Below are positions 47,161 through 64,000 of a stretch of 64,000 nt of DNA, piece by piece. The position numbers and the translations under genes were made by a program. Position 1 is the first letter of the stretch. Every line of letters begins with the position of its first letter. The DNA is from Cellvibrio sp. (GTDB lineage Bacteria; Pseudomonadota; Gammaproteobacteria; Pseudomonadales; Cellvibrionaceae), in the NCBI GenBank assembly GCA_035490715.1, contig DATJLF010000005.1:2208-66207 (forward strand), in the 5' to 3' direction. The notes under the pieces are model-generated. The model was given only the letters and a program-made list of their open reading frames with translations, was not told where the DNA came from and ran no database searches.

Positions 47161-47277
47161 TTACCCTCAACTCCTACCACAAAAAATATTATGTTTCGTA
47201 GGAGCAGCATAAAAAATGCCACTTAGGATACAGCTTCACCCAACCAAGGTTTTTCCAAAATACAGGTATTACTCAAT

Positions 47278-48285: not shown

Positions 48286-48314
48286 AACATCTTCCCTATA
48301 ACAGTCGATAAGTT

Positions 48315-48342
48315 ATGGACAAAGATTTACTGGCACAAGTTC
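48315..48342 (-). promoter_or_regulatory. Possible sigmaE/AlgU promoter of the LpxR-family gene
   Basis: GAACTT-N17-TCCAT on the minus strand, about 30 nt upstream of ATG. Confidence 0.4.
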
Positions 48343-48364
48343 TATCGCACAGGAAATGGATAAT

Positions 48365-48388
48365 AAAAAAGCCCTCACATGGAGGGCT
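48365..48388 (-). terminator. Intrinsic terminator ending the iron-associated cluster
   Basis: AGCCCTC-catgt-GAGGGCT-TTTTT on minus. Confidence 0.75.
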
Positions 48389-48411
48389 GTTCACATTGAA
48401 ATTTTTACAAA

Positions 48412-50895
48412 TTAATAAATGTCGCGGCGATAACGATTGGTTTCTATCAATTGCTGCACATCGTTTTCACCCAGTATTGCCTCCAGTACCTGGTGAATAC
48501 CCGTGCCCATTGCTATACCACCGCACACATAAATAACAGCACCACGATCCAGCCAATCACATAATTGTTGCTGTTTGGTTGCCAATATATTTTGTACGTA
48601 ACCTTCACCATCACGCGAATAAACTTCATCGAGGTCAGTGAGGAAACCCGATTGCTGCCATGCATCGAGTTCGTGGGCAAACAGACGATCTTTGCTGCGC
48701 TGGCGCTCACCAAAAATTAGCCAGTTTTGTTGCTGGTCTTTTAAGTAACGATCATGTAAATGTGCGCGCAAACCAGCGATACCAGTACCCGCGCCAATTA
48801 AAATCATCGGACAATTGGTTTGCGGGGCATGGAAAGAAGGATTCGCACGAATGCGCGCCAACACATTACCGCCCGCTTCCGCTATCGTGGTTAACCAGCC
48901 GGAACCCAGACCCAACTCGCCTTTTTCATTGAAAGTCTGGCGTACTACCAAATCCAGTTGTCCATCTGTTGTTAAAGACGCGATGGAATATTCACGATGT
49001 GGTAATTCTAAATTATTGTGCGGCTTTATTTCGAGAATATCACCCGCCTGCCAATGCGTGTTACCCGGTGATGAGGGCTGCAAAGTCACTCGATAAATTG
49101 GCGTGCCTACACTACCTGCGTTTAACAATTCACGTTTTTGCAAACGCCAGTTTTCATATGCCGGCGCAGCCCAGGCAGTTACATTTTTCACGCCGCTAAT
49201 ATCTGCAATTTGTTGTTGCCATTGATGGATCGCGTGCTCGTTACCGTTGTCGACATCAATGCGCGCGAATAACGGATGCGCCCCGCTTGCTAACAACCAT
49301 TGTTCAACCTGTACAGCAAACGCGCAGTAATCCTCGTAACGTTTATCGCCAAGTGCCAACACGCCAAATTGCAATTGTTTTAATGACAGTGATGACTTCA
49401 ATAATTTACGTGCGAAACCGCGCGCAGAATCCGGTGCTTCACCTTCGCCAAAGGTGGATGCCAAAAACAATATTTTCTTTGCTGATTCCAATGTAGTTCT
49501 ATCCAGTGCCGCAATATTTTTTACGCTCGCTTTAATTCCGCCGGATTGCAAAATAGTCGCCGTGTTCCAGGCAAGTTGTTCGGCTGTGCCCGTTTGCGTT
49601 GCATATACGATCCAGAAATCGGCGTCTGTATGAGCATTAACACCGGCAGCAGCATTTTTGCTATTGCGTTTCTTTTTGCGGCGATCAAAATACAGAAGAA
49701 ATCCGGTAATCGTAAACAACGGCATCAATAACGAGGCGATCATATTAATAATCAAACCGGGCGTTCCGAACCATTCGCCCGTATGCAATTCATAAATGCC
49801 TTGCATGATGCGTTTACCCAATGGCTCAAGTGGCTTGTAAGGTTGATCACTGACTAACTCACCCGATTGCGCGCTAAAGCTGACCATACTGCGCTGGCGA
49901 TCATTGGTTGCATCCGGCGTGACGTAATTAATCATTACCGGATCTTTTTCTGAACGTGGAATAGTCACGCTCGCAAATTTAAAATTATTTTCAGCTTTGG
50001 TTGTAAAGCTAGCCCATGCAGCATCAACAGCAATCGGTGCAAAATGCTGGTGTTGCATATCGCCTTCGCGTGCCATGCGACGCCCTTCATCACCACGACG
50101 TTTTTCGCCACCCTCGCGGCCCTGGCCACGCGTTTCGCGTCCCATAGCGCCAGCGCCTTGTCCGCCACCGGGACCACCGGGTCCAAAACCGCGACGCTCC
50201 TGCACAGGTTCGCCAGTTAACACTATTGATGCACCACTTTTAAACCAACTGTAAGACCAGGTCAGCCCCGTTAATGCCATCAGCAAATACATGAGTATCA
50301 GCCAGGTTCCAATCACCGAGTGCAATGCCCAATAAAAATTACGCCCTTTTAAACTGAAATCAATCCGGAACCAGTTGCGCCAATTCAATGCGCGACGCGG
50401 CCAGCGCAAATATAAGCCGGATAACGCAAAAAATATTAACGCGAATGCACTGAAGCCAGTGATTTGGCGACCGATATTAATGCCATCGGGTTCTGATGGA
50501 ATTAATAACCAGCGGTGCAGTGAACGCACAGTACGAAAAAATTGTTCGCCATTTATTTTTCCTAATAATTCACCAGTATAGGGATTAATATAAATCGCAT
50601 CCCCACGACGCTGGCCTTCAGGTGGAGCAACGCGTACCAACGCACTGCGATCAGCTTCAGGCCATAGCGTAATCTGCTCAACACGCTCACCGGGACGCTG
50701 CTCACGGAAACGCTCTGCAATTGCGTCTGGTGTTAAGCGCTCACCGCTCACTTCAACACGCACAACCTCGGGGCTAATCGCCTCCATGATCGTGCGCTCA
50801 AAACTCATCAAACCACCGGTAACGCCCACAATAGCTAACACCACACCTGCTGTGATCCCCAAAAACCAGTGAATCTGGAATAAACCGTTTCTCAC
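48412..50895 (-). CDS. PepSY-associated TM domain fused to flavodoxin and FNR-like reductase (PiuB/CysJ-like)
   Basis: QIHWFLG, LHRWL, LHSVIG and LHTG TM histidines; YATQTGTAE flavodoxin loop; REYSIAS, IGAGTGIAG, VCG and RRDIY motifs. GTG at 50895 preferred. Confidence 0.85.
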   Translation of the reverse strand: MRNGLFQIHWFLGITAGVVLAIVGVTGGLMSFERTIMEAISPEVVRVEVSGERLTPDAIAERFREQRPGERVEQITLWPEADRSALVRVAPPEGQRRGDAIYINPYTGELLGKINGEQFFRTVRSLHRWLLIPSEPDGINIGRQITGFSAFALIFFALSGLYLRWPRRALNWRNWFRIDFSLKGRNFYWALHSVIGTWLILMYLLMALTGLTWSYSWFKSGASIVLTGEPVQERRGFGPGGPGGGQGAGAMGRETRGQGREGGEKRRGDEGRRMAREGDMQHQHFAPIAVDAAWASFTTKAENNFKFASVTIPRSEKDPVMINYVTPDATNDRQRSMVSFSAQSGELVSDQPYKPLEPLGKRIMQGIYELHTGEWFGTPGLIINMIASLLMPLFTITGFLLYFDRRKKKRNSKNAAAGVNAHTDADFWIVYATQTGTAEQLAWNTATILQSGGIKASVKNIAALDRTTLESAKKILFLASTFGEGEAPDSARGFARKLLKSSLSLKQLQFGVLALGDKRYEDYCAFAVQVEQWLLASGAHPLFARIDVDNGNEHAIHQWQQQIADISGVKNVTAWAAPAYENWRLQKRELLNAGSVGTPIYRVTLQPSSPGNTHWQAGDILEIKPHNNLELPHREYSIASLTTDGQLDLVVRQTFNEKGELGLGSGWLTTIAEAGGNVLARIRANPSFHAPQTNCPMILIGAGTGIAGLRAHLHDRYLKDQQQNWLIFGERQRSKDRLFAHELDAWQQSGFLTDLDEVYSRDGEGYVQNILATKQQQLCDWLDRGAVIYVCGGIAMGTGIHQVLEAILGENDVQQLIETNRYRRDIY

Positions 50896-50961
50896 TCTCG
50901 TTCCCCCAAGCCCCAAAAACCACACAAAACTGTGGGCATCGTTATTAAAAAAAATTACGTG

Positions 50962-52377
50962 TTAATCAGCAGCAAGCGTCCAGCCACCGCCGAGTGATTT
51001 ATACAAATCCACCGCTGCATCCAACCGCGACAAGCGCTGTTGTACCAATGAGTCCTGCGCTTGAAATAAACTGCGCTGCGCATCCAGCAGCGATAACAAA
51101 TCATCAGTGCCCGCGCGATAACGCGCTTCAGTTAAACGCAAACTGCGTTCAGCATTGGCAACAATTTCCTGTTGGCTGATTTCCTGACGTTGGCTTACAT
51201 CAGCTGCCACCAACGCGTTATCCACTTCCTGCAGCGCGGTTAAAATCGCTTTGTGATATTGCAACAGCATCTCACTGCGGCGTGTTTCGGTTAAACGTTT
51301 TTGATTGACCAACCGCCCGCCGTTAAACAAAGTTTGCGCAAGCGATAAAGTCCAACCTGAAGATTGGGTTGCAGGATTCAAGCTGAATAATTCACTTGCC
51401 GATTCCCCCACCTCTGCACTCAACTTGATGCCAGGTAAAAGCGCTGCACGCGCTGCATGTATATCGGCATTGGCACCCCGTAAATCAGCTTCACTTGCGG
51501 CTAAATCCGGGCGACGGGTTACTAAATCAGCAGGGGTTCCTGAAGCAATTTGCGGCACCTGTATATCCAGCAAATATTCAGGAACAAGCACAAACTCCTG
51601 CGGGGTTTTACCCAATAAAATTGCCAGTGCCGATTGCGTTTGCCGCGCTTGCAACTCCAACGGCAATAACGATGATCGTTGACTTAACAAGTTGGTTTTT
51701 TGTTGTGCTACATCGGCGGCCGTTGCAGCACCATTGTTATAACGCGCATCAACAATTTTTTGCACACGTTCGGCAATGGCAATATTTTTATTGGCCGTTG
51801 CGATACGCTCCTGTAACGCCAGCCATTGGAACCAGCCACTGGCGATAGCAGCTTTGATACTGAGGATTGCAGCATCCTGATCGTAACGTGTCGCTTCATA
51901 ACCAGCTTTTGCAGACGCACGTTCGGCAGCAATCCCGCCCCATAAATCCACTTCGTAACTTATATTCACTCCAGCACGAGTGGACTCACTGCGAGAATGG
52001 TTTCCACCATCAGGTTTACTACGCGATTCACCACTGGATGCACTCGCCGATAGCGAGGGGAATAAACTTGCGCTGGCAATCCGCATTTGCAATTCAGCTT
52101 GCTTTACACGTTCCGCCGAGATTAATAAATCCGGGCTTTGCTGCTGTGCAGCCTGCATCAAATTATTTAATGCTGGTGACTGAAATGATTGCCACCAGTT
52201 TGATTCTACAACGGCAGTTTCGATGGCGGATTGCGCGGGTGCCACGGAGTAATTATCCGCATAATTAATATCCGGTTTTTGCACGTGGGTAGATGAGCAT
52301 GCAGTAATGAACAACGATGCAATAACCAGCGGCAATCGTTTAAACGCTAATGTTTTTTTGTGTAATTGCATAATCAT
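50962..52377 (-). CDS. Outer-membrane efflux lipoprotein (TolC/OprM-like)
   Basis: Lipobox ITAC, WWQSFQSPALN, SYEVDLWG, RRPDL and ALQEVDNAL motifs. Confidence 0.9.
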   Translation of the reverse strand: MIMQLHKKTLAFKRLPLVIASLFITACSSTHVQKPDINYADNYSVAPAQSAIETAVVESNWWQSFQSPALNNLMQAAQQQSPDLLISAERVKQAELQMRIASASLFPSLSASASSGESRSKPDGGNHSRSESTRAGVNISYEVDLWGGIAAERASAKAGYEATRYDQDAAILSIKAAIASGWFQWLALQERIATANKNIAIAERVQKIVDARYNNGAATAADVAQQKTNLLSQRSSLLPLELQARQTQSALAILLGKTPQEFVLVPEYLLDIQVPQIASGTPADLVTRRPDLAASEADLRGANADIHAARAALLPGIKLSAEVGESASELFSLNPATQSSGWTLSLAQTLFNGGRLVNQKRLTETRRSEMLLQYHKAILTALQEVDNALVAADVSQRQEISQQEIVANAERSLRLTEARYRAGTDDLLSLLDAQRSLFQAQDSLVQQRLSRLDAAVDLYKSLGGGWTLAAD

Positions 52378-54320
52378 TACTCCGTCGCCAATGCAGCAAC
52401 CGGATCGAGACGAGCCGCTTTGCGTGCAGGCAAATATCCAAACAACAAACCTGTTAAAAACGCACAGCTGAACGCCATAATTACCGGCCCGAATGAATAA
52501 GCTACGGGTGTACCGAGATTGGCAATTAACATAGCAGTACTTAATCCGATTATCACTCCAATCACACCACCAAGCGCCGACACGACCAATGCCTCAATTA
52601 AAAACTGCTGCATGATGTTGCGGGTGCGTGCACCAGTTGCCATACGCACTCCAATCTCCCGCGTTCGTTCGGTGACACTTACCAGCATAATATTCATTAC
52701 ACCAATACCACCGACAAGTAGTGAAATCGCCGCGATAGACCCCAGTAAAAATGTCATGGTATTTTGTGTTTCGGACACCATATCAATCAGCGATGACATA
52801 CTGCGAATCTGGAAATCTTCTGTGCCATGCCGCTCCATCATCAAGGCATGCACGCGGGTTTGCACCTCTTCCATATTTTTTTCGTCGTCAACGGAAATCG
52901 TGATATTGCGCAAGAAACGTTGCCCAATAACACGCAGGCTGCCGGTATTAAAAGGAACAAATACTTTATCGTCCTGGTCCTGCCCACCAGGGTCAGCACC
53001 GCGTTCACTCATCACACCAATAACCTGGAAGAGCACGTTATTGATGATAATAAATTCGCCCAGTGGATTTTTATTGGCAAATAATTTGGTCGCGACGGTT
53101 TTACCCAACACAACAACCGTTGCATAATTTTTGTTGTCTTCATCGGTGAAGAAAGTGCCTTGGGCCACATCCCATTTACGAGCCATGGGAAATTGCGCGG
53201 CGGTCGCACTAATTTCTGTGGCATGATCCACGTTGCCATAACGCAGGGTAAAACTACCATTTAGCTCGGGTAATGCAGCAGCGACATGTGGCAACGTTGC
53301 AATCGCATCAACGTCCTCCGGTATCAACGTTACCGAATCCCACCGAAAACGCTGTGTTGGACCACCGGGCCGCACTAACAACAAATTGCTCCCCATTGCG
53401 CTAATACTATCTACAACCGATTTTTTCGCACCATCGCCAATGGCGAGCATACTAATGACGGAAGCTACACCAATCACAATTCCCAACAGCGTTAAAATTG
53501 TGCGAAAAATATTGCTGCGCAACGAGCGGAATGCGGTTTTGGTCGCTTCAAGAATTTCCGTTTTAATTTGAGGCGTACCATGCAGCGCATGCTCTTCTGC
53601 CGGTAATTGTTTCGGAATAGTGGGGCCAGGATCAGCAATAATTTTACCATCGCGAATTTCAATTAACCGTTGGGCGTGATGCGCAACTTCTGCGTCATGG
53701 GTAATCAAAATAATGGTATGTCCTTGCGCTGATAATTCTTTCAGCAAGCGCATGACTTCTTTACCGCTGTGGCTATCCAACGCGCCGGTGGGTTCATCCG
53801 CAAGAATTATCTGGCCACCATTCATGAGTGCGCGTGCAATTGAAACACGTTGCTGCTGACCGCCGGATAATTGATTGGGCCGATGATGCAAACGTTCTTG
53901 CAACCCCAATGCACTTAATAATGTTGAGGAACGTTCGCGGCGCGCCTCAGGTGTCATGCCGGAATAAGTTGCAGGCATTTCCACGTTTTCACATGCCGTA
54001 GAACCCGCTAGCAAGTTATAACTCTGGAATACGAAACCAAAGGCCTCCCGACGTAATTGTGCAAGACCATCGGTATCCAGTGTTGCAACGCTGGTGCCGT
54101 TAAATAAATATTCACCGGTGCTCGCGCGATCAAGGCAACCGAGAATATTCATCAAGGTGGATTTGCCTGAACCTGATTGCCCCATGATGGCAACAAATTC
54201 GCCGGGATAAATTTCCAGATCAACGCCGTGCAAAACCTGGGTAGCAATTTCGCCATTGCGAAACGTTTTGGTAACGCCGGATAATTTAATCAGCGGTTGA
54301 ATTGAATTAGCAGCAGTCAT
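52377..54320 (-). CDS. macB: MacB-type ABC transporter (NBD plus FtsX TMD)
   Basis: [31 protein letters not shown] and [20 protein letters not shown] motifs. Confidence 0.92.
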
Positions 54321-55759
54321 TAACGTCTACCCATTCCCGGGCCGCCACCGAAACCACCTGCCGGTGCAACTTTTACCTGATTGGGTTTAGTGCTGCCGCT
54401 GACAACTTTTTCACCTTCTTTCAAGCCTTCAATAATCTGTGCTTGCACCCGGTTGGTTACACCAACCAATACTTTGCGTTCTTCAATATCACCATCCTCA
54501 TTCATGATTTTTACAACGGCAGGACGCGGGCGATTTGTTGCTGTACCTTGAGTGTCACCTCTTTCGCGGCGACCTTTCCACTCACCATTGGGAGCAACTT
54601 CAGGACGGGCATTGGCAGATTCCGGTTTTGCTTGTCCGGTTGCAGGAGTCATATCGCTTTTATCGGTGAATGTTTTTTCTGTTTGCAGTTTTTCGGATTG
54701 GGTACGTTCTGCCGACGGCTTGTTATTCTGTGATGCGTCGCCTTGACCTTGTGGACGTGGTCCACGCGGTGAATCAAAACTGACCGCAGACATAGGCACT
54801 AACAACACCTCCCTGGCTTGCGATTCTATAAAAAATACCTGCGTGCTCATTTGGGTCATCAGCAAACGGTTTTCGTTAGGCACATCAAAAAGCGCGTTAT
54901 ACAAAACAACATTATTGAGAATTTCCGGCGTGGGCTGAATACGATCCAGCTTGCTATACCAGCGACGTCCCTGGCTGCCGAGGGTGGTGAAATACACATC
55001 CATATCCTTACGCAATTTACCGATATCCGCTTCAGACACCTGGGTTTGCACAGTCATAATAGAAAGGTCAGCCACACGCATAATGGTCGGTGCCATTTGG
55101 TTCGTGTTGAGTGTTTGCCCCTGGCGTGAAGTGATGGACACGACGGTGCCATCCATTGGGGCATAAATTTTGGCGTAATCCAGATTGGCGGCTTCTACAC
55201 GCAACGTAGATTCGATCTGTGCAATTTGTGCTTGCAATGATTTAAGTTGTGCACGCGCTGATTTCAAACCAGCATCGGCTGTCTCCAATGATTCACTGGT
55301 TGTTGCATCTTCAGCAAATAAATTTTTTTCACGTTTGAAATTAATCTCAGCCAATGTTAATTGTGCTTCGCGATCCAGCAATTGTGCTTTCTGGTTTTGC
55401 AATTGTGCGCGGGTAGCATCTACTTTTGCGGCATATACAGTCGCATCAATTTCAGCGAGCAAATCACCCGCTTTGACTTCGCTTCCCACTTCAACATGTA
55501 ATTTTTTCAGTTGACCGGACACCTGTGCGCCGACATCAACATAATCTTGCGGTTGCAATGTCCCTGTGGCAGTAACCAGATTTTCAATATTTCCGCGTGT
55601 CACAGCCTCCGTGGTATAGACGATTTCATTTTCATCATTCGCAAAAGCGAACTTCCATACTAATACAATTGCAATCACGCTTATGATTACAAAAAAGCCT
55701 ATACCTGACTTCCGACGATAAAACGGGCGTTGTTGAGAGGAAAAAGAAGGGGAAAGCAT
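54320..55759 (-). CDS. macA: MacA-type periplasmic adaptor
   Basis: [32 protein letters not shown] and VSEADIG motifs; N-terminal TM. Confidence 0.9.
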
Positions 55760-55869
55760 AGTTATTTCTCGTCCACAATAAATATGGCGCGAGTATACCT
55801 GATGACATTGATGTAGGCGTTGACGCTATAGGGTATCAACACTTGTTTCACAATGTTTAATTGTTGACA

Positions 55870-57363
55870 TCAGTAAACATCACGGCAATAGCGACGCCCA
55901 TCCGCCATTTGCTCCAATCGATCAACGCCAATAATTTGACCCAACAGTTCATCCACAGCCTGTGCCATACCTTGTAAATTGCCGCACACAAAAATGGCCG
56001 CACCCTGCTCCACCCAACGCTGCAATTCCAGTGCATTGGGCAATAACAAATCCTGGACATAACGCGGATCACCTGTTTGCGCGTCACGCGAAAACACGCG
56101 ATCAACACGCTCCAGCAAACCAGATTGCTGCCAATGCAAAATATCGTCGTAAAAAAAGTAATCAGCATCAGCCGTTCGTTCACCAAAAAATAACCAATTC
56201 CGGGTTCCGGCGCGCGCCGGATTTGCCAAATGGGAACGCAACCCCGCAATTCCCGTACCGTTGCCAATCAAAATAAGTGGACATTGACCGGGGGAATGAA
56301 AGTGGGGATTGCTACGAATACGCAATCGTATTGGTTCGAATAATTGAGCATGCACAGTCAACCAGCCTGAACCAAGGCCATATTGATGCGGGGCAAACTT
56401 CACTTGCCGCACCAGTAAATCGAGCGAATTCTCCGAGGGTACGGAAGCTATGGAATATTCGCGCTTGGGAAGATGAGCTAAAGCCTCAATCAACGCTATG
56501 TCATCCAATGCACGTAATTTTTCCCATGTTTCTTGCGTATCCACATGCAAATTTCGATATTGCAATAATTCGGGAGCAATGGAATTTCGTTTCAGCTGTT
56601 GCAAAAAATACTGGATCTTTTCTCTGCCATTTCCCGGCCCTATTTCCACAATGTCGCCCGCACGCCAGGTGTCTCCAATAATCCCACCGTTCACAGGCGA
56701 TAACTTTATATGGAAAGCTGGGGCTCCAGGGCTGCCGGAATTAATGCAGTGACGTGCTGTTATTTGCCACTCTTTATAATCCGGTTGGCTCCAGTCAGCA
56801 TAATGGGTGTTTCCGGAAATTTGCCCAAGATAATATTGCCAATGCCGCAACGCGCTTTGATCCAATTGGTCGACTTCAATAATATCTGTTAAAAAGTGCG
56901 CGCCCTGATGATGCAGAGCGGTATGCAACTGATGAGCAAACCCGCAAAAATATTGGTAATTTGAATCACCCAAGCCCAAGATCGCTACTTGTAAATGTTG
57001 AAGGGGATTTACACTGGATTTCATTAAGCGGGGAATAAAACGGTTGCCATTGTCGGGTGCCTCGCCTTCACCATACGTGCTGGCAATAATCAGGAGAGTT
57101 TTTGTTCCTGCCAATAAATCCGGAGTCAGTTGGTTAAGAGTGAGAACAGTGCTTTCTTTTCCTGCATCACGTAATTGCTGCGCCGTTTGATTTGCAATTA
57201 CATTCGCCGTGCCGGTTTGGCTGGCATACGCAACCAAAATATCAGCGTGCTGAAACTTTTTCGCCAAGCCCTGCTGACGCTGATATTTCCGCCAACAAAG
57301 CCAGCAAAGCCAGCAAAAAACAATGTAGATAAAAATTAATATTCCCGCCGCCAAATAACGCAC
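55870..57363 (-). CDS. Membrane-anchored flavodoxin plus FNR-like oxidoreductase (CysJ-like)
   Basis: N-terminal TM, YASQTGTA, STYGEGEAPDN, REYSIAS, IGNGTGIAG, FFGER and RYCRDVY motifs. Confidence 0.85.
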   Translation of the reverse strand: MRYLAAGILIFIYIVFCWLCWLCWRKYQRQQGLAKKFQHADILVAYASQTGTANVIANQTAQQLRDAGKESTVLTLNQLTPDLLAGTKTLLIIASTYGEGEAPDNGNRFIPRLMKSSVNPLQHLQVAILGLGDSNYQYFCGFAHQLHTALHHQGAHFLTDIIEVDQLDQSALRHWQYYLGQISGNTHYADWSQPDYKEWQITARHCINSGSPGAPAFHIKLSPVNGGIIGDTWRAGDIVEIGPGNGREKIQYFLQQLKRNSIAPELLQYRNLHVDTQETWEKLRALDDIALIEALAHLPKREYSIASVPSENSLDLLVRQVKFAPHQYGLGSGWLTVHAQLFEPIRLRIRSNPHFHSPGQCPLILIGNGTGIAGLRSHLANPARAGTRNWLFFGERTADADYFFYDDILHWQQSGLLERVDRVFSRDAQTGDPRYVQDLLLPNALELQRWVEQGAAIFVCGNLQGMAQAVDELLGQIIGVDRLEQMADGRRYCRDVY

Positions 57364-57521
57364 ACATAAACCTTTTATTGTTACCCGAATCGATGCTCGT
57401 TGGCCGATTGGGACGGATTAACGAATGATGCATCTTTGACAGTTTTATTTAAACTTTACTCCCTGGTTTTTCAATGGCGTATCCCTACGCTCACTGTTTC
57501 AAAAATTAAACCCGTTTGTTT

Positions 57522-58349
57522 TTATTCCGGTAATACCTCAACGGTTGCAGCATAACCACCAGTGCGGATAGTGGCAGGTTTTTTCGCTTTATTATCGCGA
57601 TAATCTGCACTCAACCAATACATGCCGGCATTTGGCCAAGTTATGGATACCTTGCCTTTTTTATCTGTTACCAATTCAATTGCCGCTTGATCATTGCGAT
57701 AACGCATGCCGCCAGGAATAACCATTATTTTCACACCTTCTGCGGGCTTACCGTCAATTAAAAATTGAAACTCGGCAGCTTCACCAGCAAACAAATCGTT
57801 CGGGTGAGTAATCGGCAACATTTCCAAACCTTGTTTGGTGATTTTTAATACGTTGTCATCGGGAGTACCTGAGGTAACGAAAGTTTCCAGACGACGGGAG
57901 AATTGGGAAATTTCTATATCTTTCGCATCCTTGGGGATATTTTTTTCTACGTCAGCAGGATTACCTTTTTCACCACGCCCTGGCCACATACGACGCTCAC
58001 CTGCCGGGGTTTTCCAGGTTGCCATAACACCAGTAGAAGCAATCGCAATTTTATAGGTGCCTTTTTGCGGCAACTGCACATCAAATACACTGCGGAATTT
58101 TCCGGTAACTGCATTTTGCGGAGTTAACGAACTACCATCCGGTGCAGTAATTTTCACACCATCAACTCGCATAGGTGCGTGATCTGCATGAAAAATATCG
58201 TTGGATACAGCGGCATCCACACCTACCCAGGCCTCATCACTGGAAAGGACGGTTGCACTCGGCAACAACCAGACGCGGTGGGCTTGTGCACTTAATGGCA
58301 AGCACATAACTAATGCAGTGCAGAGCGACGCTTTCAAAAATGTATTCAT
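57522..58349 (-). CDS. DUF4198 periplasmic protein
   Basis: Signal peptide then AHRVWLLPS; GLEMLPITHPND and G.RYR motifs. Confidence 0.8.
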   Translation of the reverse strand: MNTFLKASLCTALVMCLPLSAQAHRVWLLPSATVLSSDEAWVGVDAAVSNDIFHADHAPMRVDGVKITAPDGSSLTPQNAVTGKFRSVFDVQLPQKGTYKIAIASTGVMATWKTPAGERRMWPGRGEKGNPADVEKNIPKDAKDIEISQFSRRLETFVTSGTPDDNVLKITKQGLEMLPITHPNDLFAGEAAEFQFLIDGKPAEGVKIMVIPGGMRYRNDQAAIELVTDKKGKVSITWPNAGMYWLSADYRDNKAKKPATIRTGGYAATVEVLPE

Positions 58350-58383
58350 TTATTTTCTCCTAAAAATAATTTGTTTTTTGTTA

Positions 58384-58908
58384 TCAAGGTTTTACTACCA
58401 GCTTAACCTCACCCAATTCCTTGCTTCCTTTTGCACTTTGCTCGGCAGTAACCGGCCATACAAAAGGTACTTTCACTAACTCACGGCCACCCACTTCACG
58501 CACAGCTTCAACCATCAATACATATTTGCCTTTTGATAATTTACCTAATGGCGCTTTCCCTTCTGTAAACACCAGTGCATGTTTACCCGGTTTACGAGTT
58601 GCACCACTCACACCATCAAGCGGCATATCAGTTTCGCGGCCAATACGACGCCACCATTGACGCATGTCTTTCAACCACTCTTCACCTTTCTCACTTTTTT
58701 GGCCGCGCTCTTCCAGCTGGTACCAAACGGACAAATTAGTGCTCTCACCTTTTTCATTTTCCAACCACACCGCCACATAGGGTTCGTGGTATTCAGCCAC
58801 TTCAAGCCTTGGAACTTCAATGGAAACAGTTAAATCTGTCGCCTGGACTGATAAAGCTCCCATCATTAAACCAATCATCAATGAACATTTGGATAAGCGC
58901 GAACGCAT
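58384..58908 (-). CDS. DUF2271 periplasmic protein with a predicted flavinylation motif
   Basis: YHEPYVAVW, WLKDMRQWWR, DGVSGAT ([ST]GA[ST]) and EAVREVGGRE motifs. Confidence 0.8.
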   Translation of the reverse strand: MRSRLSKCSLMIGLMMGALSVQATDLTVSIEVPRLEVAEYHEPYVAVWLENEKGESTNLSVWYQLEERGQKSEKGEEWLKDMRQWWRRIGRETDMPLDGVSGATRKPGKHALVFTEGKAPLGKLSKGKYVLMVEAVREVGGRELVKVPFVWPVTAEQSAKGSKELGEVKLVVKP

Positions 58909-58932
58909 AACAACCTCGCTAATTATTTTTAA

Positions 58933-59550
58933 TTAATGGATAAACAATAAAATCAACACCCAGGGTAGTACCAAACCCAATCCCACCATGGGCCAGGTTG
59001 CAGGGCGACCACTTGCGTAGCGTTTTAATAGCAGTAAACCGGTTATACAAAAAACAATGCATGCGATTGCAAAAAAATCGAGGAACCAACTCCAGGCTGT
59101 GCCGGTGTTACGACCTTTATGTAAATCATTGAAATAGGAAATCCAGCCACGCTCTGTTAATTCGTACTCAAATGCACCTGAAGTCAAATCAATACTTAAC
59201 CAGGCATCACCACCAGGACGAGGCAAGGATAAATATATTTCCCCTTCACTCCACTCTGCATTTTTTCCATTGGCTCTGATGCCTTGTGTATCACGTAACC
59301 ACACCACCAACTCTTTTGGTAAGGGGGCATTTTCGACAACGGGAATTTTAACGGCTTGAATAATATCGAGTGGAACATCAGCAGATAGGCTGGTAATTTT
59401 TGGTGAAGCCGTTATTTGTGAAGCATGGTTCAAGGTGATGCCGGTAATAGCAAATAACAGCATTCCAATAAGGCAAATTGCAGAACTGATCCAATGCCAC
59501 TGGCGCAGGCTGCCGAGCCAGAAACCGGATGTTTTTTTATCGTTGGCCAT
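58933..59550 (-). CDS. PepSY-associated TM-helix protein
   Basis: LRQWHWISSA, TGITLNH and NDLHKGR motifs; TAATG overlap with the upstream stop. Confidence 0.82.
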   Translation of the reverse strand: MANDKKTSGFWLGSLRQWHWISSAICLIGMLLFAITGITLNHASQITASPKITSLSADVPLDIIQAVKIPVVENAPLPKELVVWLRDTQGIRANGKNAEWSEGEIYLSLPRPGGDAWLSIDLTSGAFEYELTERGWISYFNDLHKGRNTGTAWSWFLDFFAIACIVFCITGLLLLKRYASGRPATWPMVGLGLVLPWVLILLFIH

Positions 59551-60230
59551 TACACTTGTGCCCATTGGCGCAACAAATTATGGTAATGCCCGGTTAAGCC
59601 AACCAGCTCTTCAGTGTCACCCAACTTTTGTCGCAATGATTGAATATTACAATCCAACTCATGCAATAAACTGCGCTGCCAATCGTCACGCACCATACTT
59701 TGCGTCCAGAAAAAACTACACACGCGCTCGCCCGCTGTTACCGGAGCAACCTGATGCAAACTCGTTGATGGATAAAGGATTAAATCACCCGCAGGCAACT
59801 TCACTTCGTGACTGCCGTAAGTGTCCTGGACAATTAATTCACCGCCTTCATATTCTTCCGGTTCGGATAAAAATAATGTGGAAGAAACATCCGTACGTAA
59901 ACTTAAATTACTACCGGGTACGAGACGGATTGCTCCATCAACATGGAAACCATAGTGTTCGCCACCGGCATATGCATTGAACATTGGCGGCACAATGCGT
60001 AGCGGTAAAGCTGCGGACATGAAAAGCGGATTTGAATACAGCGCTTTTAAAATAATTTCACCCAACTCCCGGGCAACCAATCCATCTACCGGTAATTGGC
60101 GATTCTTTTTTACCTGGGCCCCTTGCATTCCCACGGTTGCTTTTCCATCAATCCAATCAGCTTGATCCAAGCGCGAACGAAATTCAGTGACTTGTTGTTT
60201 GCTGAGGATGTCTGGAATATGAATTAACAT
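59550..60230 (-). CDS. piuC: PKHD-type Fe(II)/2-oxoglutarate dioxygenase (PiuC/YbiX)
   Basis: PPMFN.Y...HYGFHVD, YEGGEL and YPSTSLHQV...GER motifs. Confidence 0.92.
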
Positions 60231-60299
60231 AAAGTTCTCACCGGATGAGATTTATCCCACATTAATTTTCTGATTTTATTTTTTGAATCTGCAATGCAT

Positions 60300-60323
60300 A
60301 GGGGCGCGATAAATCGCGCCCCT
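60300..60323. repeat. GC-rich palindrome, REP-like
   Basis: AGGGGCGCGAT-aa-ATCGCGCCCCT, a perfect 11-bp stem between the receptor gene and piuC; no U-tract. Confidence 0.55.
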
Positions 60324-60348
60324 GCAATTTCGCATTTAATCCCAGTGA

Positions 60349-62724
60349 TTAAAATGCGAAGTTAACGCCCAGGCGAGCTGAGCGCTCTGTGCCTAAGAAG
60401 TAACGCGAACCAGCATTGTTTACGCTAGCAGCATATTCTTCATCAGCGAGGTTAAAAATATTCAGCTGAATATTAATGTTTTTGTTGATCGGATATGAAG
60501 CCATAGCATCAAATACCCAGTAATCAGGTACCTCCAACACTGAGCGACGTGAGCGTGCATCCGGATCAGTCAAACTGGAGCTTGCTACTGAGTCCATGTA
60601 ACGCGCACCACCGCCAATCACTACACCATTTTCAAAGGTGTAGCTGTTCCACAATGTGAAAGTAGTTTCCGGTGACCATTGAATAACCCCACCATCTGTA
60701 CTCGCTGCGGTAGTTGCACGATTACCGTGAGTAATTTCTGGATCCATAAACGCCAAACCAGCACTGATTTGCCAGTTTTGGGTCAGGATACCGGCAACAC
60801 CAAATTCCACACCCTCAACCTGACGCTCACCCACAGCCGTAGTAGTGCCGTCTGGATTTGATGCAAATTCATTTTCGTTAGTGCTACGGAATATCGCAGC
60901 AGTTAACGACAACTTATTGTCGAAGACATTCCATTTAGTTCCAATTTCCTGGTTGGTACCTTTCTGTGGATCAACATTTGGCGTATTCGAGTTCGCAGCA
61001 CCACTGGTAGTCAATGAGAAGTTTGCACCACCCGGAGGCAATTGGGATGTTGCGTAAGAGACATAGATAGAGCCATTTTCTGACGGCTTATACACAGTGC
61101 CCAACTTCCAGCTCACCAATTCATCATCCAGTTTTGCCGAACTTCCCAATAAGGTTCCAACAGGAATCAATTGCGGTGCGGGAGCAGTGACTGCTGCCTG
61201 ACGGGTAATGACATCGGTTTTTGTATGGAAGCGTTCAGCACGAACACCGGCACTGACTTCCCAATGCTCATTCAGCGTAATTGTATCCAGTGCATAAAGT
61301 GCATAGGTGATAGTTTCACCATCCGTTTTTGCGCCAGTACGAATCACTGGCTGGAATGTATCGCTGGTGCTTGGGTTGTACAAACTTGCAGGCGCCTGGC
61401 CCGCCGCGGTTGACGAGGTTGGCGATACAAATGGCACTGCCATGGTATATGTCAGCTGGCTCTCGTATACAAATTCAACACCGGAGCTCAAATCATGCTT
61501 AAGACCACCGGTTTCAAAAGCAGCGGTCAAATTCGTTTGATTGGTAAGGATTTGATTGGTTTGGTCACGGCCCTGGCGCGAACGCGCTATGGTCCAGGTG
61601 TCAAGATTGTCTCTGGTTGCAAGCGGCACAGTAATTGCGTTGATACCGGTCAGTACTTGCTCTTGATTGGTGCGGCCGTAGCGAGAAGTATTACGCAGGG
61701 TTACGCCTTCAGCCAAATCGTGTTCAATTCGAACAGTCGCCATATTGGCATTCACGTCATTATGGTCACTGGTGGAACCATAAAAGTTTTCAGTGTCCAC
61801 GGCTTGGGGTTTTTGATTAGCCAAAGGGCCACCAGTTGGATAAGTGGTGCTAGGGCGTGCGTCGAATGCCGCGTTGTAATAACCCGGAAAACCGATTGTT
61901 GGAATACCGCCATCAGGAATACCGGATTGTTTTACCGACAGGATGTTTAAATAAGTGCGGGTTTCAGTTTGCAGCCCCAAGCCTAACGATGCTGCAAAAC
62001 CTTCAAGATTGTTTTCTACTTCGTCACGACCAACTACACCGGAATCCTGCTTCAGTAAATTCACACGAACAGCAGAACTCTCACCCAAGGTGCGGTTTAC
62101 ATCAATGGTGGCGCGCTTGAAATCACCGGAGCCAAAACCTACAGTGCCCGTGGTTGCATCTTCAAGGTTTGCCAATTTACTGCTCAGATTTACATAACCT
62201 GATGCAGCGCCACGGCCGTTGTCCACGCCAGCAGGACCTTTAGCAATTTCTACTTGTTCAGTATTAAACGTGTCGCGGCTAATACTGCCCAAATCGCGAA
62301 TACCATCGACAAAAATGCTGCCTTGGGTATCGAAACCACGCATAAAAATAGAGTCTCCGGTCGCCGTATTGCCATTTTCGCCCATCAACATCGTAATACC
62401 GGGAGTGTTACGCAGGGTTTCACTCAAGGTGGTTGCAGCTTGTTGTTGGAAAAGCTCTTTTTTAACAACTACGATTGTTTGAGGCGTATCAACTAGCGGC
62501 TGGGTAAATTTAGGGGAGCTTGCCTTATCCGCTTTATAGGTAGCTTCAACTGCATCTGTTTCGACTTTTACAGTATCCAACTTTTTAGCATCTTTGACTT
62601 CATCGGCGGCCATAGCGCCAGCAGAAGCCAGTAACATCGCCGAGGAAAGCGCCGTTGCAGTAAATTGCAACGAAGAAGATCGTTTTTTGGAAACGATGTG
62701 CTTTGAAGATTTTTGCATGGTCAT
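60349..62724 (-). CDS. fiu: Fiu/PiuA-type catecholate-siderophore TonB-dependent receptor
   Basis: TonB box DTVKVE; plug GENGNTATGDSIFMRGFD...DGIRDLGSISRDTFNTEQVE; C-terminal Phe. Confidence 0.88.
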   Translation of the reverse strand: MTMQKSSKHIVSKKRSSSLQFTATALSSAMLLASAGAMAADEVKDAKKLDTVKVETDAVEATYKADKASSPKFTQPLVDTPQTIVVVKKELFQQQAATTLSETLRNTPGITMLMGENGNTATGDSIFMRGFDTQGSIFVDGIRDLGSISRDTFNTEQVEIAKGPAGVDNGRGAASGYVNLSSKLANLEDATTGTVGFGSGDFKRATIDVNRTLGESSAVRVNLLKQDSGVVGRDEVENNLEGFAASLGLGLQTETRTYLNILSVKQSGIPDGGIPTIGFPGYYNAAFDARPSTTYPTGGPLANQKPQAVDTENFYGSTSDHNDVNANMATVRIEHDLAEGVTLRNTSRYGRTNQEQVLTGINAITVPLATRDNLDTWTIARSRQGRDQTNQILTNQTNLTAAFETGGLKHDLSSGVEFVYESQLTYTMAVPFVSPTSSTAAGQAPASLYNPSTSDTFQPVIRTGAKTDGETITYALYALDTITLNEHWEVSAGVRAERFHTKTDVITRQAAVTAPAPQLIPVGTLLGSSAKLDDELVSWKLGTVYKPSENGSIYVSYATSQLPPGGANFSLTTSGAANSNTPNVDPQKGTNQEIGTKWNVFDNKLSLTAAIFRSTNENEFASNPDGTTTAVGERQVEGVEFGVAGILTQNWQISAGLAFMDPEITHGNRATTAASTDGGVIQWSPETTFTLWNSYTFENGVVIGGGARYMDSVASSSLTDPDARSRRSVLEVPDYWVFDAMASYPINKNINIQLNIFNLADEEYAASVNNAGSRYFLGTERSARLGVNFAF

Positions 62725-62775
62725 GACTAGCCCTTTTTATTAATAATAGGAATATACAATTAACAATATTTTCAA

Positions 62776-62804
62776 ATTTTATCGATACGCATTACCAAAT
62801 GCAA
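62776..62804 (-). promoter_or_regulatory. Sigma70-type promoter of the receptor operon
   Basis: TTGCAT-N17-TAAAAT on the minus strand. Confidence 0.6.
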
Positions 62805-62821
62805 TGATAACAATTCTTATT
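62803..62821. promoter_or_regulatory. Fur box overlapping the -35 element
   Basis: Minus strand AATAAGAATTGTTATCATT matches AATGATAATCATTATCATT at 15/19. Confidence 0.72.
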
Positions 62822-62945
62822 TGACGCCTTGAACAACTTTTTACGCCTAAAATATGCACTTATGTTAAAAGCTACTGTTATTTGACTTATTGATCATATA
62901 ACTAAAAGCGATTAGTCTTGGCGTGATATATCACCACTTATTCGG

Positions 62946-63743
62946 ATGAGCATAGAACCGATGAGTAAATCCCTAGATTGCTGTACCTGGATTTGCACAT
63001 GGATGTTATTGGCCTACCCACTTTCTGCAAAAGCAGAAAGTGCCTTGAACCCGGCTTCTCCGGCGATAGATAACTCCATCCAAATCCGGATTGGAGCTGA
63101 GGATTCATGGCCACCTTACTCCGATGAGCATGGGCAAGGCATATCTGCTGAATTGGTGAAGGCGGCGTTTGCGAAATCCAACTTAACCCCAACCTTTCGT
63201 GTACTCCCTTATGCAAGGGTTTTGCACGACTTGGGATCTGGAAAGCTGGATGGGGGCTACAACATCACATTGCAGTCCACAACAAGAGATAAATATCTCT
63301 TCGGCAAAATACCGTTATTGAGCGTTGAGTCTTACTGGTATTTCAAGCCAGAAACATTTGCACACATCAAAACTATCGATGATATACCGGCGAAGTTTCG
63401 TGTAGGCATTATCCGCGACTATGAATATGGCGATATATATGAGACACATCGCCATCGCTTTACTGAAATCCAGCTTACCCAACAATCCCAAATCATCCGC
63501 ATGCTTAAACAAGGTCGCATTGATGCAGCAATTATGTTTGACCTTGAAGCAAAATATGCATTAAAGAAAATGGGGCATAATGAAGATGTTTTGGAAAAAA
63601 GATTTCTCAATCATCGCGGGGATGTTTATCTTGCTTTCTCACACAAAAGTCCGCGGGCACTATGGCTTTCGCAAGAATTGGACAAAGGGCTGTTAATGCT
63701 GAAAGAGTCAGGGGAGTATGATCGTATCACTGACACTGAGTGA
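62946..63743 (+). CDS. Stand-alone family-3 type periplasmic substrate-binding protein
   Basis: EDSWPPYS, LPYARV, RVGIIRDYEYG and ML..GRIDA motifs; no permease in the window. Start uncertain. Confidence 0.75.
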   Translation: MSIEPMSKSLDCCTWICTWMLLAYPLSAKAESALNPASPAIDNSIQIRIGAEDSWPPYSDEHGQGISAELVKAAFAKSNLTPTFRVLPYARVLHDLGSGKLDGGYNITLQSTTRDKYLFGKIPLLSVESYWYFKPETFAHIKTIDDIPAKFRVGIIRDYEYGDIYETHRHRFTEIQLTQQSQIIRMLKQGRIDAAIMFDLEAKYALKKMGHNEDVLEKRFLNHRGDVYLAFSHKSPRALWLSQELDKGLLMLKESGEYDRITDTE

Positions 63744-63891
63744 TGCTCAGAAATTTGAGGCAATATATTATCGCGACGGGGATATTTGAAAGACCCTACT
63801 CTGATATGGAATCTATGAGTTGACTCAGTCCATATAGAAACATTCACCACTCCATGACATGAAAAGCGCATTCTGAAAAATATAGAAACTT

Positions 63892-63922
63892 AAAAAAATA
63901 CCGCTTTTAAGCGGTATTTTTT
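63892..63922. terminator. Bidirectional intrinsic terminator
   Basis: AAAAAATACCGC-ttttaa-GCGGTATTTTTT. Confidence 0.8.
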
Positions 63923-63923
63923 A

Positions 63924-64000
63924 TCACATGTATGCATTGGATCGATCTGTATGATCAGTTACATCTCGTATGCCTTTTAATTCGGGCAACTTATCAATTA
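63924..64000 (-). CDS. nfuA: C-terminus of Fe/S biogenesis protein NfuA (truncated by window edge)
   Basis: Reads IDKLPELKGIRDVTDHTDRSNAYM-stop, resembling the NfuA C-terminal PELKGVRD.T.H...AYY; followed by a terminator. Confidence 0.65.
   Translation of the reverse strand, partial: IDKLPELKGIRDVTDHTDRSNAYM

Follow-up and report, generated by a model that had tools for sequence, protein, structure and literature searches.

The question raised by this locus is why the genes of an efflux pump lie among those for iron uptake in a soil-dwelling member of the Cellvibrio family. Ten co-oriented open reading frames occupy positions 48412-62821 of the 64-kb stretch of DNA that was analysed (the window). 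The original prediction read them as one Fur-controlled operon that captures, reduces and re-exports a xenosiderophore. Their coordinates and their Pfam and NCBIfam profiles bore out the assigned identities, which are as follows.

60349-62724, minus strand: gene 1, Fiu/PiuA-type TonB-dependent catecholate receptor (TBDT), 791 aa, with Plug and beta-barrel domains
59550-60230, minus strand: gene 2, cytoplasmic PiuC/YbiX/CciO-type Fe(II)/2OG dioxygenase, 226 aa, with PKHD_C and 2OG-FeII_Oxy_3
58933-59565, minus strand: gene 3, PepSY_TM_like_2 three-helix membrane protein (PF16357, 279.6 bits; three hydrophobic segments)
58384-58908, minus strand: gene 4, secreted DUF2271 protein with the ApbE flavinylation motif DGVSGAT (Ser101-Thr104)
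57522-58349, minus strand: gene 5, secreted DUF4198 protein, predicted mature N-terminus beginning with His (AQA followed by HRVW)
55870-57363, minus strand: gene 6, flavodoxin-FAD/NAD(P)H reductase (CysJ-like), 497 aa, with an N-terminal membrane anchor
54320-55759, minus strand: gene 7, MacA-like periplasmic adaptor, 479 aa (RND_mfp subfamily, 171.9 bits)
52377-54320, minus strand: gene 8, MacB-type ABC pump with NBD, 4 TM and periplasmic core domain (MacB_PCD and FtsX)
50962-52377, minus strand: gene 9, NodT-family outer-membrane factor (OMF) lipoprotein (TIGR01845, 335.1 bits; cut-off 210)
48412-50925, minus strand: gene 10, PiuB-like fusion of PepSY_TM, flavodoxin and FNR, 837 aa, with a four-helix, FoxB-like PepSY_TM

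The locus is a two-part composite of an iron-starvation unit (genes 1-6) and a lineage-specific pump (genes 7-9). Gene 1 scored 808.7 bits against the Fiu equivalog NF007349 (cut-off 686); gene 2, which carries the HVD...H motif, scored 356.6 bits against NF003975 (cut-off 180). A catechol-type TBDT likewise stands beside a PKHD-type 2OG dioxygenase in Fiu-YbiX (E. coli), PiuA-PiuC-PiuB (P. aeruginosa PA4513-4515), and CciT-CciO (Caulobacter), and a PiuB-type PepSY-oxidoreductase in the same locus and Fur-type sites are further points of likeness. Here, the TBDT, dioxygenase, and PiuB-type genes are co-oriented and split by a 10-kb reductase module and pump insert, whereas piuA-piuB and piuC-piuE of P. 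aeruginosa form two divergent operons (PMC9426570).

Genes 3-6 share their order with the PepSY-like flavinylated system (Meheust et al., 2021, PMC8238504; Caulobacter CC3059-CC3063). Common to both are a PepSY-like TM protein, a DUF2271 protein with the [ST]GA[ST] FMN site, a secreted DUF4198 protein, and an NAD(P)H flavoprotein, as well as an association with TBDT and Fur. Flavinylation of a DUF2271 homolog at [ST]GA[ST] was demonstrated experimentally in the study that defined the motif (PMC8238504). Gene 3, of the short three-helix type, had no PDB sequence match and is a putative haem-based transmembrane electron conduit. Gene 6, whose equivalent position in Caulobacter is held by the flavoprotein CC3063 (PMC3751524), would be the cytoplasmic electron donor. 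Gene 5 is a putative captor of periplasmic divalent metal (Fe2+), and members of its family are known to bind Zn2+ or Ni2+ (PMC12663993, PMC12537917). In Caulobacter, the homologs CC3059-63 and CC0027-28 are repressed by Fur and contribute to fitness under chelation stress (PMC3751524; bioRxiv 10.1101/2024.10.16.618771). Among the sampled Pseudomonadota genomes having both PiuC and DUF2271 (about 32), the two lay no more than 10 kb apart in 17. Genes 1-6 are thus of an already described and widespread kind, a CciT/CciO-type pair joined to a PepSY-like flavinylated reductase. Their match to these Fur-repressed systems supports the predicted capture and reduction, as does gene 10, whose N-terminal 230 residues match the PepSY-family siderophore reductase FoxB (residues 15-246 to PDB 7ABW, E 1.5e-13). 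Unlike FoxB, gene 10 includes its flavodoxin-FNR donor in the same polypeptide.

Two predicted features of the layout were not sustained. A self-contained loop does not fit a cluster without TonB-ExbBD, without an Fe2+ importer, and without apbE, which normally lies between the DUF4198 and flavoprotein genes of the PepSY-like unit; two apbE genes are found elsewhere in the genome (contigs C73 and C16). Nor is the placement of the pump between two reductase genes supported as a design feature, since gene 10 is a variable member that is missing from loci L002, L005, and L103.

The signals between the genes bear on the reading as a single operon. Three stop/start overlaps are present as predicted: PiuC and PepSY overlap at 59550-59565, base 54320 is common to MacA and MacB, and base 52377 to MacB and OMF. 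Four further elements were located.

62783-62819, minus strand: two degenerate tandem Fur-like 7-1-7 sites
60301-60322, minus strand: GC-rich, REP-like hairpin GGGGCGCGAtttaTCGCGCCCC in the Fiu-PiuC gap
55788-55853, minus strand: element upstream of macA, conserved in 8 loci
48362-48388, minus strand: intrinsic terminator, AGCCCTCcatgtGAGGGCT and a T-run, immediately 3' of the last stop codon

The terminator after the last gene agrees with the original prediction; the Fur box at the 5' end held in part. The 19-mer first noted scored 12/19 against the consensus, which is no better than chance in a window that holds 20 matches of at least 13/19. The candidate promoter TTGCAT(62803-62798)-17-TAAAAT(62780-62775) is, however, overlapped in its -35 box and spacer by the tandem sites TAAGAATTGTTATCA (62819-62805, 11/14) and TGGTAATGCGTATCG (62797-62783, 10/14), whose positions are kept upstream in 8 orthologous loci, where the scores reach 13/14. 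Perfect 14/14 boxes precede iron genes elsewhere in the genome. Fur control would be consistent with these sites.

It is literally true that no internal U-tailed terminator is present, but two internal signals had been missed. The Fiu-PiuC gap folds strongly (MFE -40.3 kcal/mol, z = -4.41), and its hairpin, without a U-tail here, recurs at the same position in orthologs, with a U-tail in L103, L002, and L005. At least seven similar copies occur across the genome, and the hairpin is possibly an attenuator or transcript stabiliser. The element in the 110-nt gap upstream of macA comprises TTGTGAAACAAGTGTT (55853-55838) and GGTATACTCGCG (55799-55788, with a -10-like TATACT). It has one exact copy in the genome, its motif is limited to the genus and its nearest relatives, and it is probably an internal, non-Fur-like promoter or operator. 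No Fur match was found in this gap, nor upstream of macA in 58 of 62 homologous loci, and stand-alone orthologs of the pump have no Fur box of their own. Together, the hairpin, the Fur-less element, and the stand-alone pumps speak against a single Fur-controlled ten-gene operon.

In the pump itself, MacB has intact Walker A/B and signature motifs and matched 5NIK with 574 bits; it fell below the NCBIfam MacB equivalog cut-off (690.7 against 966 bits), as did gene 7 for MacA (282 against 342). In gene 7, a low-complexity insert accounts for about 85 aa, and the lipobox of gene 9 is ITAC. In the tree, MacB lies in the PvdT-containing clade (100% SH-aLRT), apart from E. coli MacB; it is 51-52% identical to PvdT and is not its sister. 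PvdRT-OpmQ with FpvGHJK/FpvCDEF, which serves periplasmic reduction and recycling of pyoverdine, likewise brings together a MacB-type pump of the same major clade, a dedicated OMF, and a periplasmic reductase of the PepSY type. Unlike it, the Cellvibrio locus is not a pyoverdine locus, has a catechol-type receptor, and keeps reductase and pump physically contiguous. MacAB-TolC (E. coli, Salmonella) and SbiAB (S. maltophilia) share the tripartite ABC architecture, but the present pump has a dedicated NodT OMF and sits inside an uptake locus. A tripartite efflux pump 3' of the flavoprotein gene sets the locus apart from the PepSY-like system and has no mention in the cited PepSY-like literature.

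A capture and periplasmic reduction unit whose MacAB-type pump ejects the emptied ligand is, as a whole, a reading to which we assign an even chance. Ferric catechol complexes (mono-, bis-, or tris-) would enter the periplasm through the receptor. Cytoplasmic NAD(P)H electrons would pass through the membrane-anchored flavodoxin-FNR and PepSY_TM_like_2 to an FMN-bearing periplasmic DUF2271 protein, flavinylated in trans by one of the two distant apbE products, and would reduce chelated Fe(III). The released Fe(II) may be captured by DUF4198 and imported by a transporter encoded elsewhere, with PiuC presumably acting in the cytoplasm. To this unit the lineage would have added a pump of the MacB type together with an adaptor and an outer-membrane channel of its own and, often, the second, FoxB-like reductase with its own diflavin donor. 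Once reduction has released the iron, the pump may expel the redox-active catechol ligand, now free of iron, or metal-ligand complexes that are not wanted. Pumps of the MacB type take their substrates from the periplasm, and PvdRT-OpmQ does so in recycling pyoverdine (PMC8277102). Catecholate products are exported by Salmonella MacAB, which handles linearised enterobactin products (PMC7403778), and by SbiAB, which has a part in stenobactin secretion and also influences the iron level (PMC9241820). Because MacB pumps expel from the periplasm and not across the inner membrane, ejecting the ligand left by reduction is the likeliest role. Against this reading count the promoter-like element without a Fur site, the missing apbE, and orthologous pumps of about 70% identity in other genera that stand by themselves, one of them next to napABC. 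So does the lack of DUF2271-MacB adjacency in the phylum sample. Linked and unlinked pumps are, moreover, mixed in the tree, and part of the pattern could reflect one gain followed by losses.

A possible, if doubtful, alternative is that MacAB-OMF acts autonomously in envelope stress or detoxification under its own promoter and regulator, landed by the iron locus in one lineage, was inherited within it, and has no iron or siderophore role. The non-Fur motif and -10 box of macA and the rarity of Fur sites there favour this explanation. In G439, G442, G471, G494, G493, G414, and G486, orthologous pumps with 68-71% identity have unrelated neighbours or the genome has no DUF2271. Upstream of these are GTAAA-N5-GTAAA direct repeats, which are typical of OmpR/CpxR-type regulators. 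In the sample of the phylum, DUF2271-MacB adjacency stood at 0 of 13.

Against such autonomy stands the recurrence of the linkage, which is non-random. MacA-MacB-OMF lies 3' of the reductase gene in all eight close relatives examined (the genus and its nearest kin), and the order FldFNR-MacA-MacB-OMF is unchanged in L001-L005, L088, and L103. Three more genera of Cellvibrionaceae have the pump beside the PepSY module; the order FldFNR-MacA-MacB-OMF also occurs in G470 (L102) and G427 (L101), and in G504 (L096) a pump of a different MacB subclade is divergent from the TBDT-PepSY module. Adjacency extends over at least four Cellvibrionaceae genera and three architectures. In G492, the pump was retained beside Fiu-PiuC despite a recent deletion that destroyed the PepSY module. 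Farther afield, a Burkholderiales MAG has the order PepSY-DUF2271-DUF4198-ApbE-FldFNR-MacA-MacB-OMF-PiuC. In another class, two genomes have related pumps next to TBDT-PiuC, arranged as TBDT-PiuC-ExbB-(unannotated gap ORF)-TonB-MacAB-OMF and as MacAB-OMF-ECF sigma-TBDT-PiuC-PepSY_TM. PiuC-MacB adjacency in 2 of 26 genomes is far above the chance expectation of about 0.15.

It is improbable that the pump instead serves a siderophore of the strain itself. As predicted, the window holds no synthesis gene: matches to NRPS, IucA/IucC, and EntE were all on other contigs. Contig C91 carries the strain's own DHB-catecholate siderophore cluster, with EntC, EntE (767.9 bits; cut-off 723.6), EntB, EntA, NRPS, SIP, an MFS exporter, PepSY_TM, and two TBDTs. 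On this explanation, the pump would take the EntCEBA-NRPS product from periplasm to outside after inner-membrane export by the MFS protein, and the Fiu locus would handle the self-made ligand and its breakdown products rather than xenosiderophores. Fiu of E. coli takes up DHBS-type breakdown products. The C91 cluster has a perfect Fur box upstream and no outer-membrane pump, and PvdRT-OpmQ and SbiAB are precedents (PMC8277102, PMC9241820). The pump is, however, unlinked to the biosynthetic cluster, and of 19 genomes whose pump ortholog is at least 68% identical, only 4 have EntE. EntE is also absent from all four sampled congeners carrying the locus, which argues that the locus is independent of endogenous catechol synthesis; with C91 in this strain, the ligand may or may not be a xenosiderophore.

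Clearance of protoporphyrin IX or other haem-pathway intermediates accumulating under iron scarcity is highly improbable: E. coli MacAB-TolC exports protoporphyrin IX (PMC8277102) and the position in an iron-starvation locus would suit such timing, but this MacB falls outside the E. coli MacB clade and no haem-biosynthesis genes lie near any locus examined.

The linkage of pump and iron locus is non-random but not universal, and the novelty of the locus is its MacA-MacB-OMF block. For this lineage, the gene order makes it plausible that the pump re-exports the ligand emptied by the reduction unit.

Ten open reading frames on the minus strand occupy positions 48412-62724 of the window. The original prediction described them as a Fur-linked, self-contained loop for capture, reduction and re-export of a xenosiderophore. 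Its observations were confirmed, with coordinates exactly as given and every gene label upheld by profile searches, and its interpretation was partly supported. The first gene encodes Fiu, a Fiu/PiuA-type catecholate TonB-dependent receptor (TBDT; 22-strand barrel) with Plug and TonB_dep_Rec_b-barrel domains (NCBIfam equivalog NF007349, 808.7 bits vs. cut-off 686). PiuC is a PKHD-type Fe(II)/2OG hydroxylase of the PiuC/YbiX dioxygenase family (NF003975, 356.6 bits vs. cut-off 180), with PKHD_C and 2OG-FeII_Oxy_3 domains and an intact HxD...H iron triad (HVD at residues 96-98 and a downstream His). The third protein, PepSY_TM_like_2 (PF16357, 279.6 bits), belongs to one of the two membrane protein families (PF03929 or PF16357) of the PepSY-like flavinylated system; a sequence search against the PDB returned no match for it. 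DUF2271 has a hydrophobic N-terminus, read as a signal peptide, and carries the [S/T]GA[S/T] flavinylation motif as DGVSGAT (residues 98-104). In DUF4198, His is the first residue past the predicted signal-peptide cleavage site. FldFNR is a CysJ-like flavodoxin-FNR protein with a single N-terminal membrane helix.

Genes 7-9 encode a pump with a cognate adaptor and outer membrane factor (OMF), and one-base overlaps join the three genes. MacA is a MacA-like adaptor (RND_mfp, 171.9 bits vs. cut-off 94.9). MacB has the MacAB-TolC-type architecture, with an N-terminal NBD followed by MacB_PCD and FtsX; its Walker A, Walker B and signature motifs are intact, and it matches 5NIK, 5GKO and 5LIL over its full length. 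The OMF is a NodT-family lipoprotein with an intact lipobox (TIGR01845, 335.1 bits vs. 210). Gene 10 encodes an 837-aa PepSY_TM-flavodoxin-FNR fusion with a four-helix PepSY_TM (PF03929, 207.8 bits); its N-terminal 230 residues match FoxB (PDB 7ABW, E 1.5e-13), which places it with PiuB/FoxB-type proteins. Two of these proteins carry low-complexity inserts. In MacA, an insert of ~85 residues rich in Pro, Gln, Ser, Lys and Glu (residues ~330-415; window 54515-54772) lies in the membrane-proximal part and is absent from E. coli MacA, to whose model only residues 22-326 align. In gene 10, a Gly/Arg/Glu-rich insert (residues ~243-290; window 50056-50199) lies between PepSY_TM helices.

Genes 1-6 are a known, common unit. 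A PepSY-like protein with DUF2271, DUF4198, ApbE and an NAD(P)H flavoprotein constitutes the 'PepSY-like' flavinylation-associated electron-transfer system, and flavinylation of DUF2271 at [ST]GA[ST] has been shown (Meheust et al., PMC8238504). In Caulobacter, Fur strongly represses two homologous systems, the CC3059-63 operon and CC0028-27, a TBDT-PKHD hydroxylase pair (PMC3751524), and each of them promotes fitness under EDTA stress (bioRxiv 10.1101/2024.10.16.618771). Among 400 evenly sampled Pseudomonadota genomes, ~32 had both PiuC and DUF2271, and in 17 of these the two lay no more than 10 kb apart. A role of DUF4198 as an Fe(II) capture protein would fit, since the characterized members are periplasmic binders of divalent metals (Zn: PMC12663993; Ni: PMC12537917). 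The lack of apbE is an unusual feature of the Cellvibrio locus, whereas the PepSY-like flavinylated system has ApbE in its cluster. The gene was missing from all Cellvibrionaceae versions of the locus examined and present in a Burkholderiales version (L009). The only two apbE copies of the genome lie outside the cluster, on contigs C73 and C16. The C73 copy (11226-12206) is directly downstream of a row of type II secretion gsp genes, an unusual neighborhood for ApbE, and upstream of genes for three TPR or unknown secreted proteins; the C16 copy (90472-91530) encodes a lipoprotein and is a few kb from an FeoB gene. In three close relatives, a second TBDT of ~810-830 aa is encoded between PiuC and PepSY_TM_like_2 (L002:5126-7612, L003:5223-7712 and L088:4264-6690), and a TBDT similar to it heads the PepSY module in loci L096 and L101.

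The new element is the pump; the core of the locus is a typical representative of iron-uptake and reductase systems already known. The MacA and MacB of the pump do not qualify as orthologs of E. coli MacA and MacB: both scored below the NCBIfam equivalog cut-offs (MacB, 690.7 bits vs. 966; MacA, 282.1 vs. 342), and the two MacB proteins belong to different major clades. In a tree of 63 MacB sequences that included E. coli K-12 MacB, the latter fell in a 17-member clade and the window MacB in the other, 46-member clade (split with 100% SH-aLRT). The 46-member clade comprises a nine-member PvdT subclade, from Pseudomonas loci with PvdE, PvdO and PvdM neighbors and 51-52% identical to the window MacB, and a 37-member subclade with the window MacB and every iron-linked pump. 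The pump is not PvdRT-OpmQ proper either, as it does not lie in a pyoverdine locus and its subclade neighbors that of PvdT rather than being sister to PvdT; the MacB of PvdRT-OpmQ shares the major clade of the window MacB but not its subclade. Transporters of the MacB type work by mechanotransmission and take their substrates from the periplasm; PvdRT-OpmQ exports pyoverdine, whether newly made or recycled (PMC8277102). Linearized enterobactin products are exported by MacAB in Salmonella (PMC7403778), and in S. maltophilia SbiAB has a part in catecholate secretion and influences cellular iron levels (PMC9241820). The Fur-regulated genes CC0683-84 of Caulobacter were considered as possible MacAB relatives and set aside on account of their annotation as HlyD/HlyB-type (type I) secretion genes.

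In each of the close relatives recovered (L001-L005, L088 and L103), the MacA-MacB-OMF genes come immediately after the gene for the flavoprotein. In a sample of 120 genomes of the family, 18 had a MacB ortholog with 68% identity or more, and the pump adjoined a PepSY module in the genus of the window and in genomes G470 (L102) and G427 (L101). In G504 (L096), a pump of a different MacB subclade is divergent from a TBDT-PepSY-DUF2271-DUF4198-FldFNR unit; this arrangement is at least one independent event. A Burkholderiales MAG has the order imelysin-DHOR-imelysin-DUF1513-PepSY-DUF2271-DUF4198-ApbE-FldFNR-MacA-MacB-OMF-PiuC; the MacB of this MAG branches as the sister of the Cellvibrionaceae clade (94% SH-aLRT). 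In another class, two genomes show the orders TBDT-PiuC-ExbB-(unannotated gap ORF)-TonB-MacA-MacB-OMF and MacA-MacB-OMF-ECF sigma-TBDT-PiuC-PepSY_TM-ExbB. In the phylum sample, PiuC and MacB were adjacent in 2 of 26 genomes with both, vs. ~0.15 expected by chance, and DUF2271 and MacB in 0 of 13. Several genera have stand-alone pump orthologs (68-71% identity), one of them beside napABC, and the host genomes of several such pumps lack any DUF2271. In the MacB tree, pumps with and without the linkage are intermingled, so part of the pattern may reflect one gain and subsequent losses. In the literature searched, no description was found of a PvdT-clade MacAB-OMF recurrently attached to an iron-uptake and reductase core.

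The close relatives also include natural variants. Gene 10 is missing from L002, L005 and L103; the placement of the pump between two reductases, a point of the original prediction, is therefore not a conserved design. A recent natural knockout of the PepSY module is found in G492; its MacB and that of L003, a locus with the module intact, are nearly identical. The deletion scar (L088:6750-7586) is a 278-aa ORF in which the N-terminal ~55 residues of PepSY_TM_like_2 are fused to a C-terminal portion of FldFNR. DUF2271 and DUF4198 are deleted, and Fiu, PiuC, the second TBDT, the pump and gene 10 are retained.

The non-coding features and gene overlaps of the locus are as follows.

62875-62915: nearly invariant 40-nt block in six orthologous loci (GACTAATCGCwTTTAGTTATATGATCAATAAGTyAAATAAC), between the Fiu promoter and a divergent SBP_bac_3-like gene (62946-63743, plus strand), of which it may be the promoter or operator
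62805-62819 and 62783-62797: two tandem 7-1-7 Fur-like sites upstream of Fiu (11/14 and 10/14), overlapping a TTGCAT-17-TAAAAT promoter
60301-60322: strong GC hairpin directly 3' of Fiu (gap fold z = -4.4)
59550-59565, base 54320 and base 52377: three gene overlaps, as predicted
55838-55853: TTGTGAAACAAGTGTT, in the 110-nt gap before macA
55788-55799: GGTATACTCGCG, 38 nt downstream of the former, with a -10-like TATACT
48388-48362: intrinsic terminator after the last stop codon, also as predicted

With the E. coli 19-mer Fur consensus, the box at the Fiu promoter scored 12/19, which is indistinguishable from background in the window. A scan for 7-1-7 inverted repeats combined with phylogenetic footprinting was used instead. 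The position of the tandem sites is kept in eight orthologous loci, with scores up to 13/14, and perfect 14/14 boxes occur elsewhere in the genome, one shortly upstream of an entC-like gene on contig C91 and another shortly upstream of a DUF4198 paralog on contig C2. Canonical Fur boxes are clearly in use in this organism. Given these boxes and the conserved position of the tandem sites, Fur control of the Fiu promoter is probable. The C2 box (TGATAATAATTATCA, C2:106635) is ~125 nt upstream of the paralog (105771-106508), which is 29% identical to the cluster DUF4198. Essentially no Fur boxes were found in the internal gaps 55760-55869, 57364-57521 and 60231-60348, and 58 of 62 homologous loci had no Fur-like site within 300 nt upstream of macA.

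The original idea of a single operon is favored by tight spacing and the overlaps, and is qualified by two features it had omitted, the hairpin after Fiu and the promoter-like element before macA, which speak for sub-units. The hairpin is one of a family of REP-like palindromes (GGGCGCGATTTATCGCGCCC and variants) with at least seven genome copies (the window and contigs C15, C27, C31, C66, C80 and C81). Orthologous Fiu-PiuC gaps hold one to three such palindromes, with a U-tail in some. The element before macA is not Fur-like. Its 16-mer, TTGTGAAACAAGTGTT, is kept in 8/8 loci of the genus and nearest relatives, to which it is confined, and the -10 box in 6/8; the exact 16-mer has a single copy in the genome. 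A whole-genome search for a regulon yielded 79 matches with up to three mismatches, vs. ~40 expected, and no convincing regulon, and the motif was not found at stand-alone pump orthologs. Three of the latter (L089, L091 and L094) have GTAAA-N5-GTAAA direct repeats ~60-150 nt upstream of macA, which we take to resemble CpxR/OmpR-type response-regulator boxes; they hint at envelope-stress control of the pump family. The 158-nt DUF4198-FldFNR gap was not taken as a regulatory element because its predicted fold is not significant (z = -0.27) and it is reduced to 3-12 nt in L001, L004 and L005. An Rfam scan of 47000-64000 gave no match at the gathering score.

The window contains no siderophore synthesis gene, as had been predicted, and the genome has such genes elsewhere: an IucA/IucC gene on contig C59, many NRPS domains, and a complete catecholate siderophore cluster on contig C91 (1-19551). 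The last encodes EntC, EntE (767.9 bits vs. cut-off 723.6), EntB-ArCP, a 1513-aa NRPS, a SIP reductase, an EntA-like SDR, an aminotransferase, an amidohydrolase, an MFS exporter, a 575-aa PepSY_TM protein and two TBDTs, with the perfect Fur box TGATAATTATTATCA (C91:18678) ~20 nt upstream of entC. With this cluster, the strain could pass its own catechol products through Fiu, and the main role of the pump might be the secretion of endogenous catechols. That role is weakened by the phylogenetic profile of EntE, which is absent from all four sampled congeners carrying the locus and occurs in just 4 among the 19 genomes that have a pump ortholog. The profile indicates that the locus is independent of endogenous catechol synthesis, which favors exogenous catechols as the ligand. 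On this comparative evidence, a xenosiderophore is a live but unproven candidate. In two other Cellvibrionaceae, DUF2271 is 3-17 kb from EntE (G487 C1:1066712-1071329 and G408 C1:4781223-4798418); PepSY-like modules can thus adjoin catecholate biosynthesis clusters.

From the observed gene content, motifs, synteny and phylogeny, we infer the following as the most likely mechanism. Ferric-catechol complexes would be imported by Fiu. Electrons from NAD(P)H would pass from FldFNR through PepSY_TM_like_2 to FMN-DUF2271, flavinylated in trans, and reduce Fe(III) in the periplasm, with gene 10 as a second, self-contained electron route. The released Fe(II) would be bound by DUF4198 and imported via transporters encoded elsewhere, and the iron-free, redox-active ligand would be expelled by MacAB-OMF. 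The locus as a whole is not self-contained, since apbE, TonB-ExbBD and the Fe(II) importer are all encoded elsewhere. Its role in capture and reduction is likely. Whether the pump is functionally coupled to it is evenly balanced, and ligand recycling as the specific role, with export of apo-siderophore suggested by synteny, is a tentative reading. If the pump were unrelated to iron, there would be nothing out of the ordinary about the locus, which would simply belong to a known family of iron-uptake loci.

To our knowledge, PepSY-like/DUF2271/DUF4198 systems are very common and have barely been tested by experiment, and the fate of the ligand after reductive iron release in the periplasm is known only for pyoverdine. 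The physical coupling of a reductase to a PvdT-clade ejector offers a genetically testable model of the recycling or detoxification of catechol chelators, with natural variants at hand: loci without gene 10, one fresh deletion of the PepSY module, and relatives with the pump alone. Fiu/PiuA-type receptors are the entry route of siderophore-conjugated antibiotics, and the locus bears on how these receptors are wired to downstream processing. It is a speculative and somewhat unlikely proposal that periplasmic modules for reductive iron release are functionally paired with MacB-type ejectors well beyond pyoverdine, the Cellvibrio locus being a 'reduce-and-eject' circuit that acts on exogenous catechols, among them those of plant or lignin origin. 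If this is true, the pump would clear a redox-cycling ligand from the periplasm and make it reusable, and the circuit would be a general answer to the fate of xenosiderophores after periplasmic iron release.
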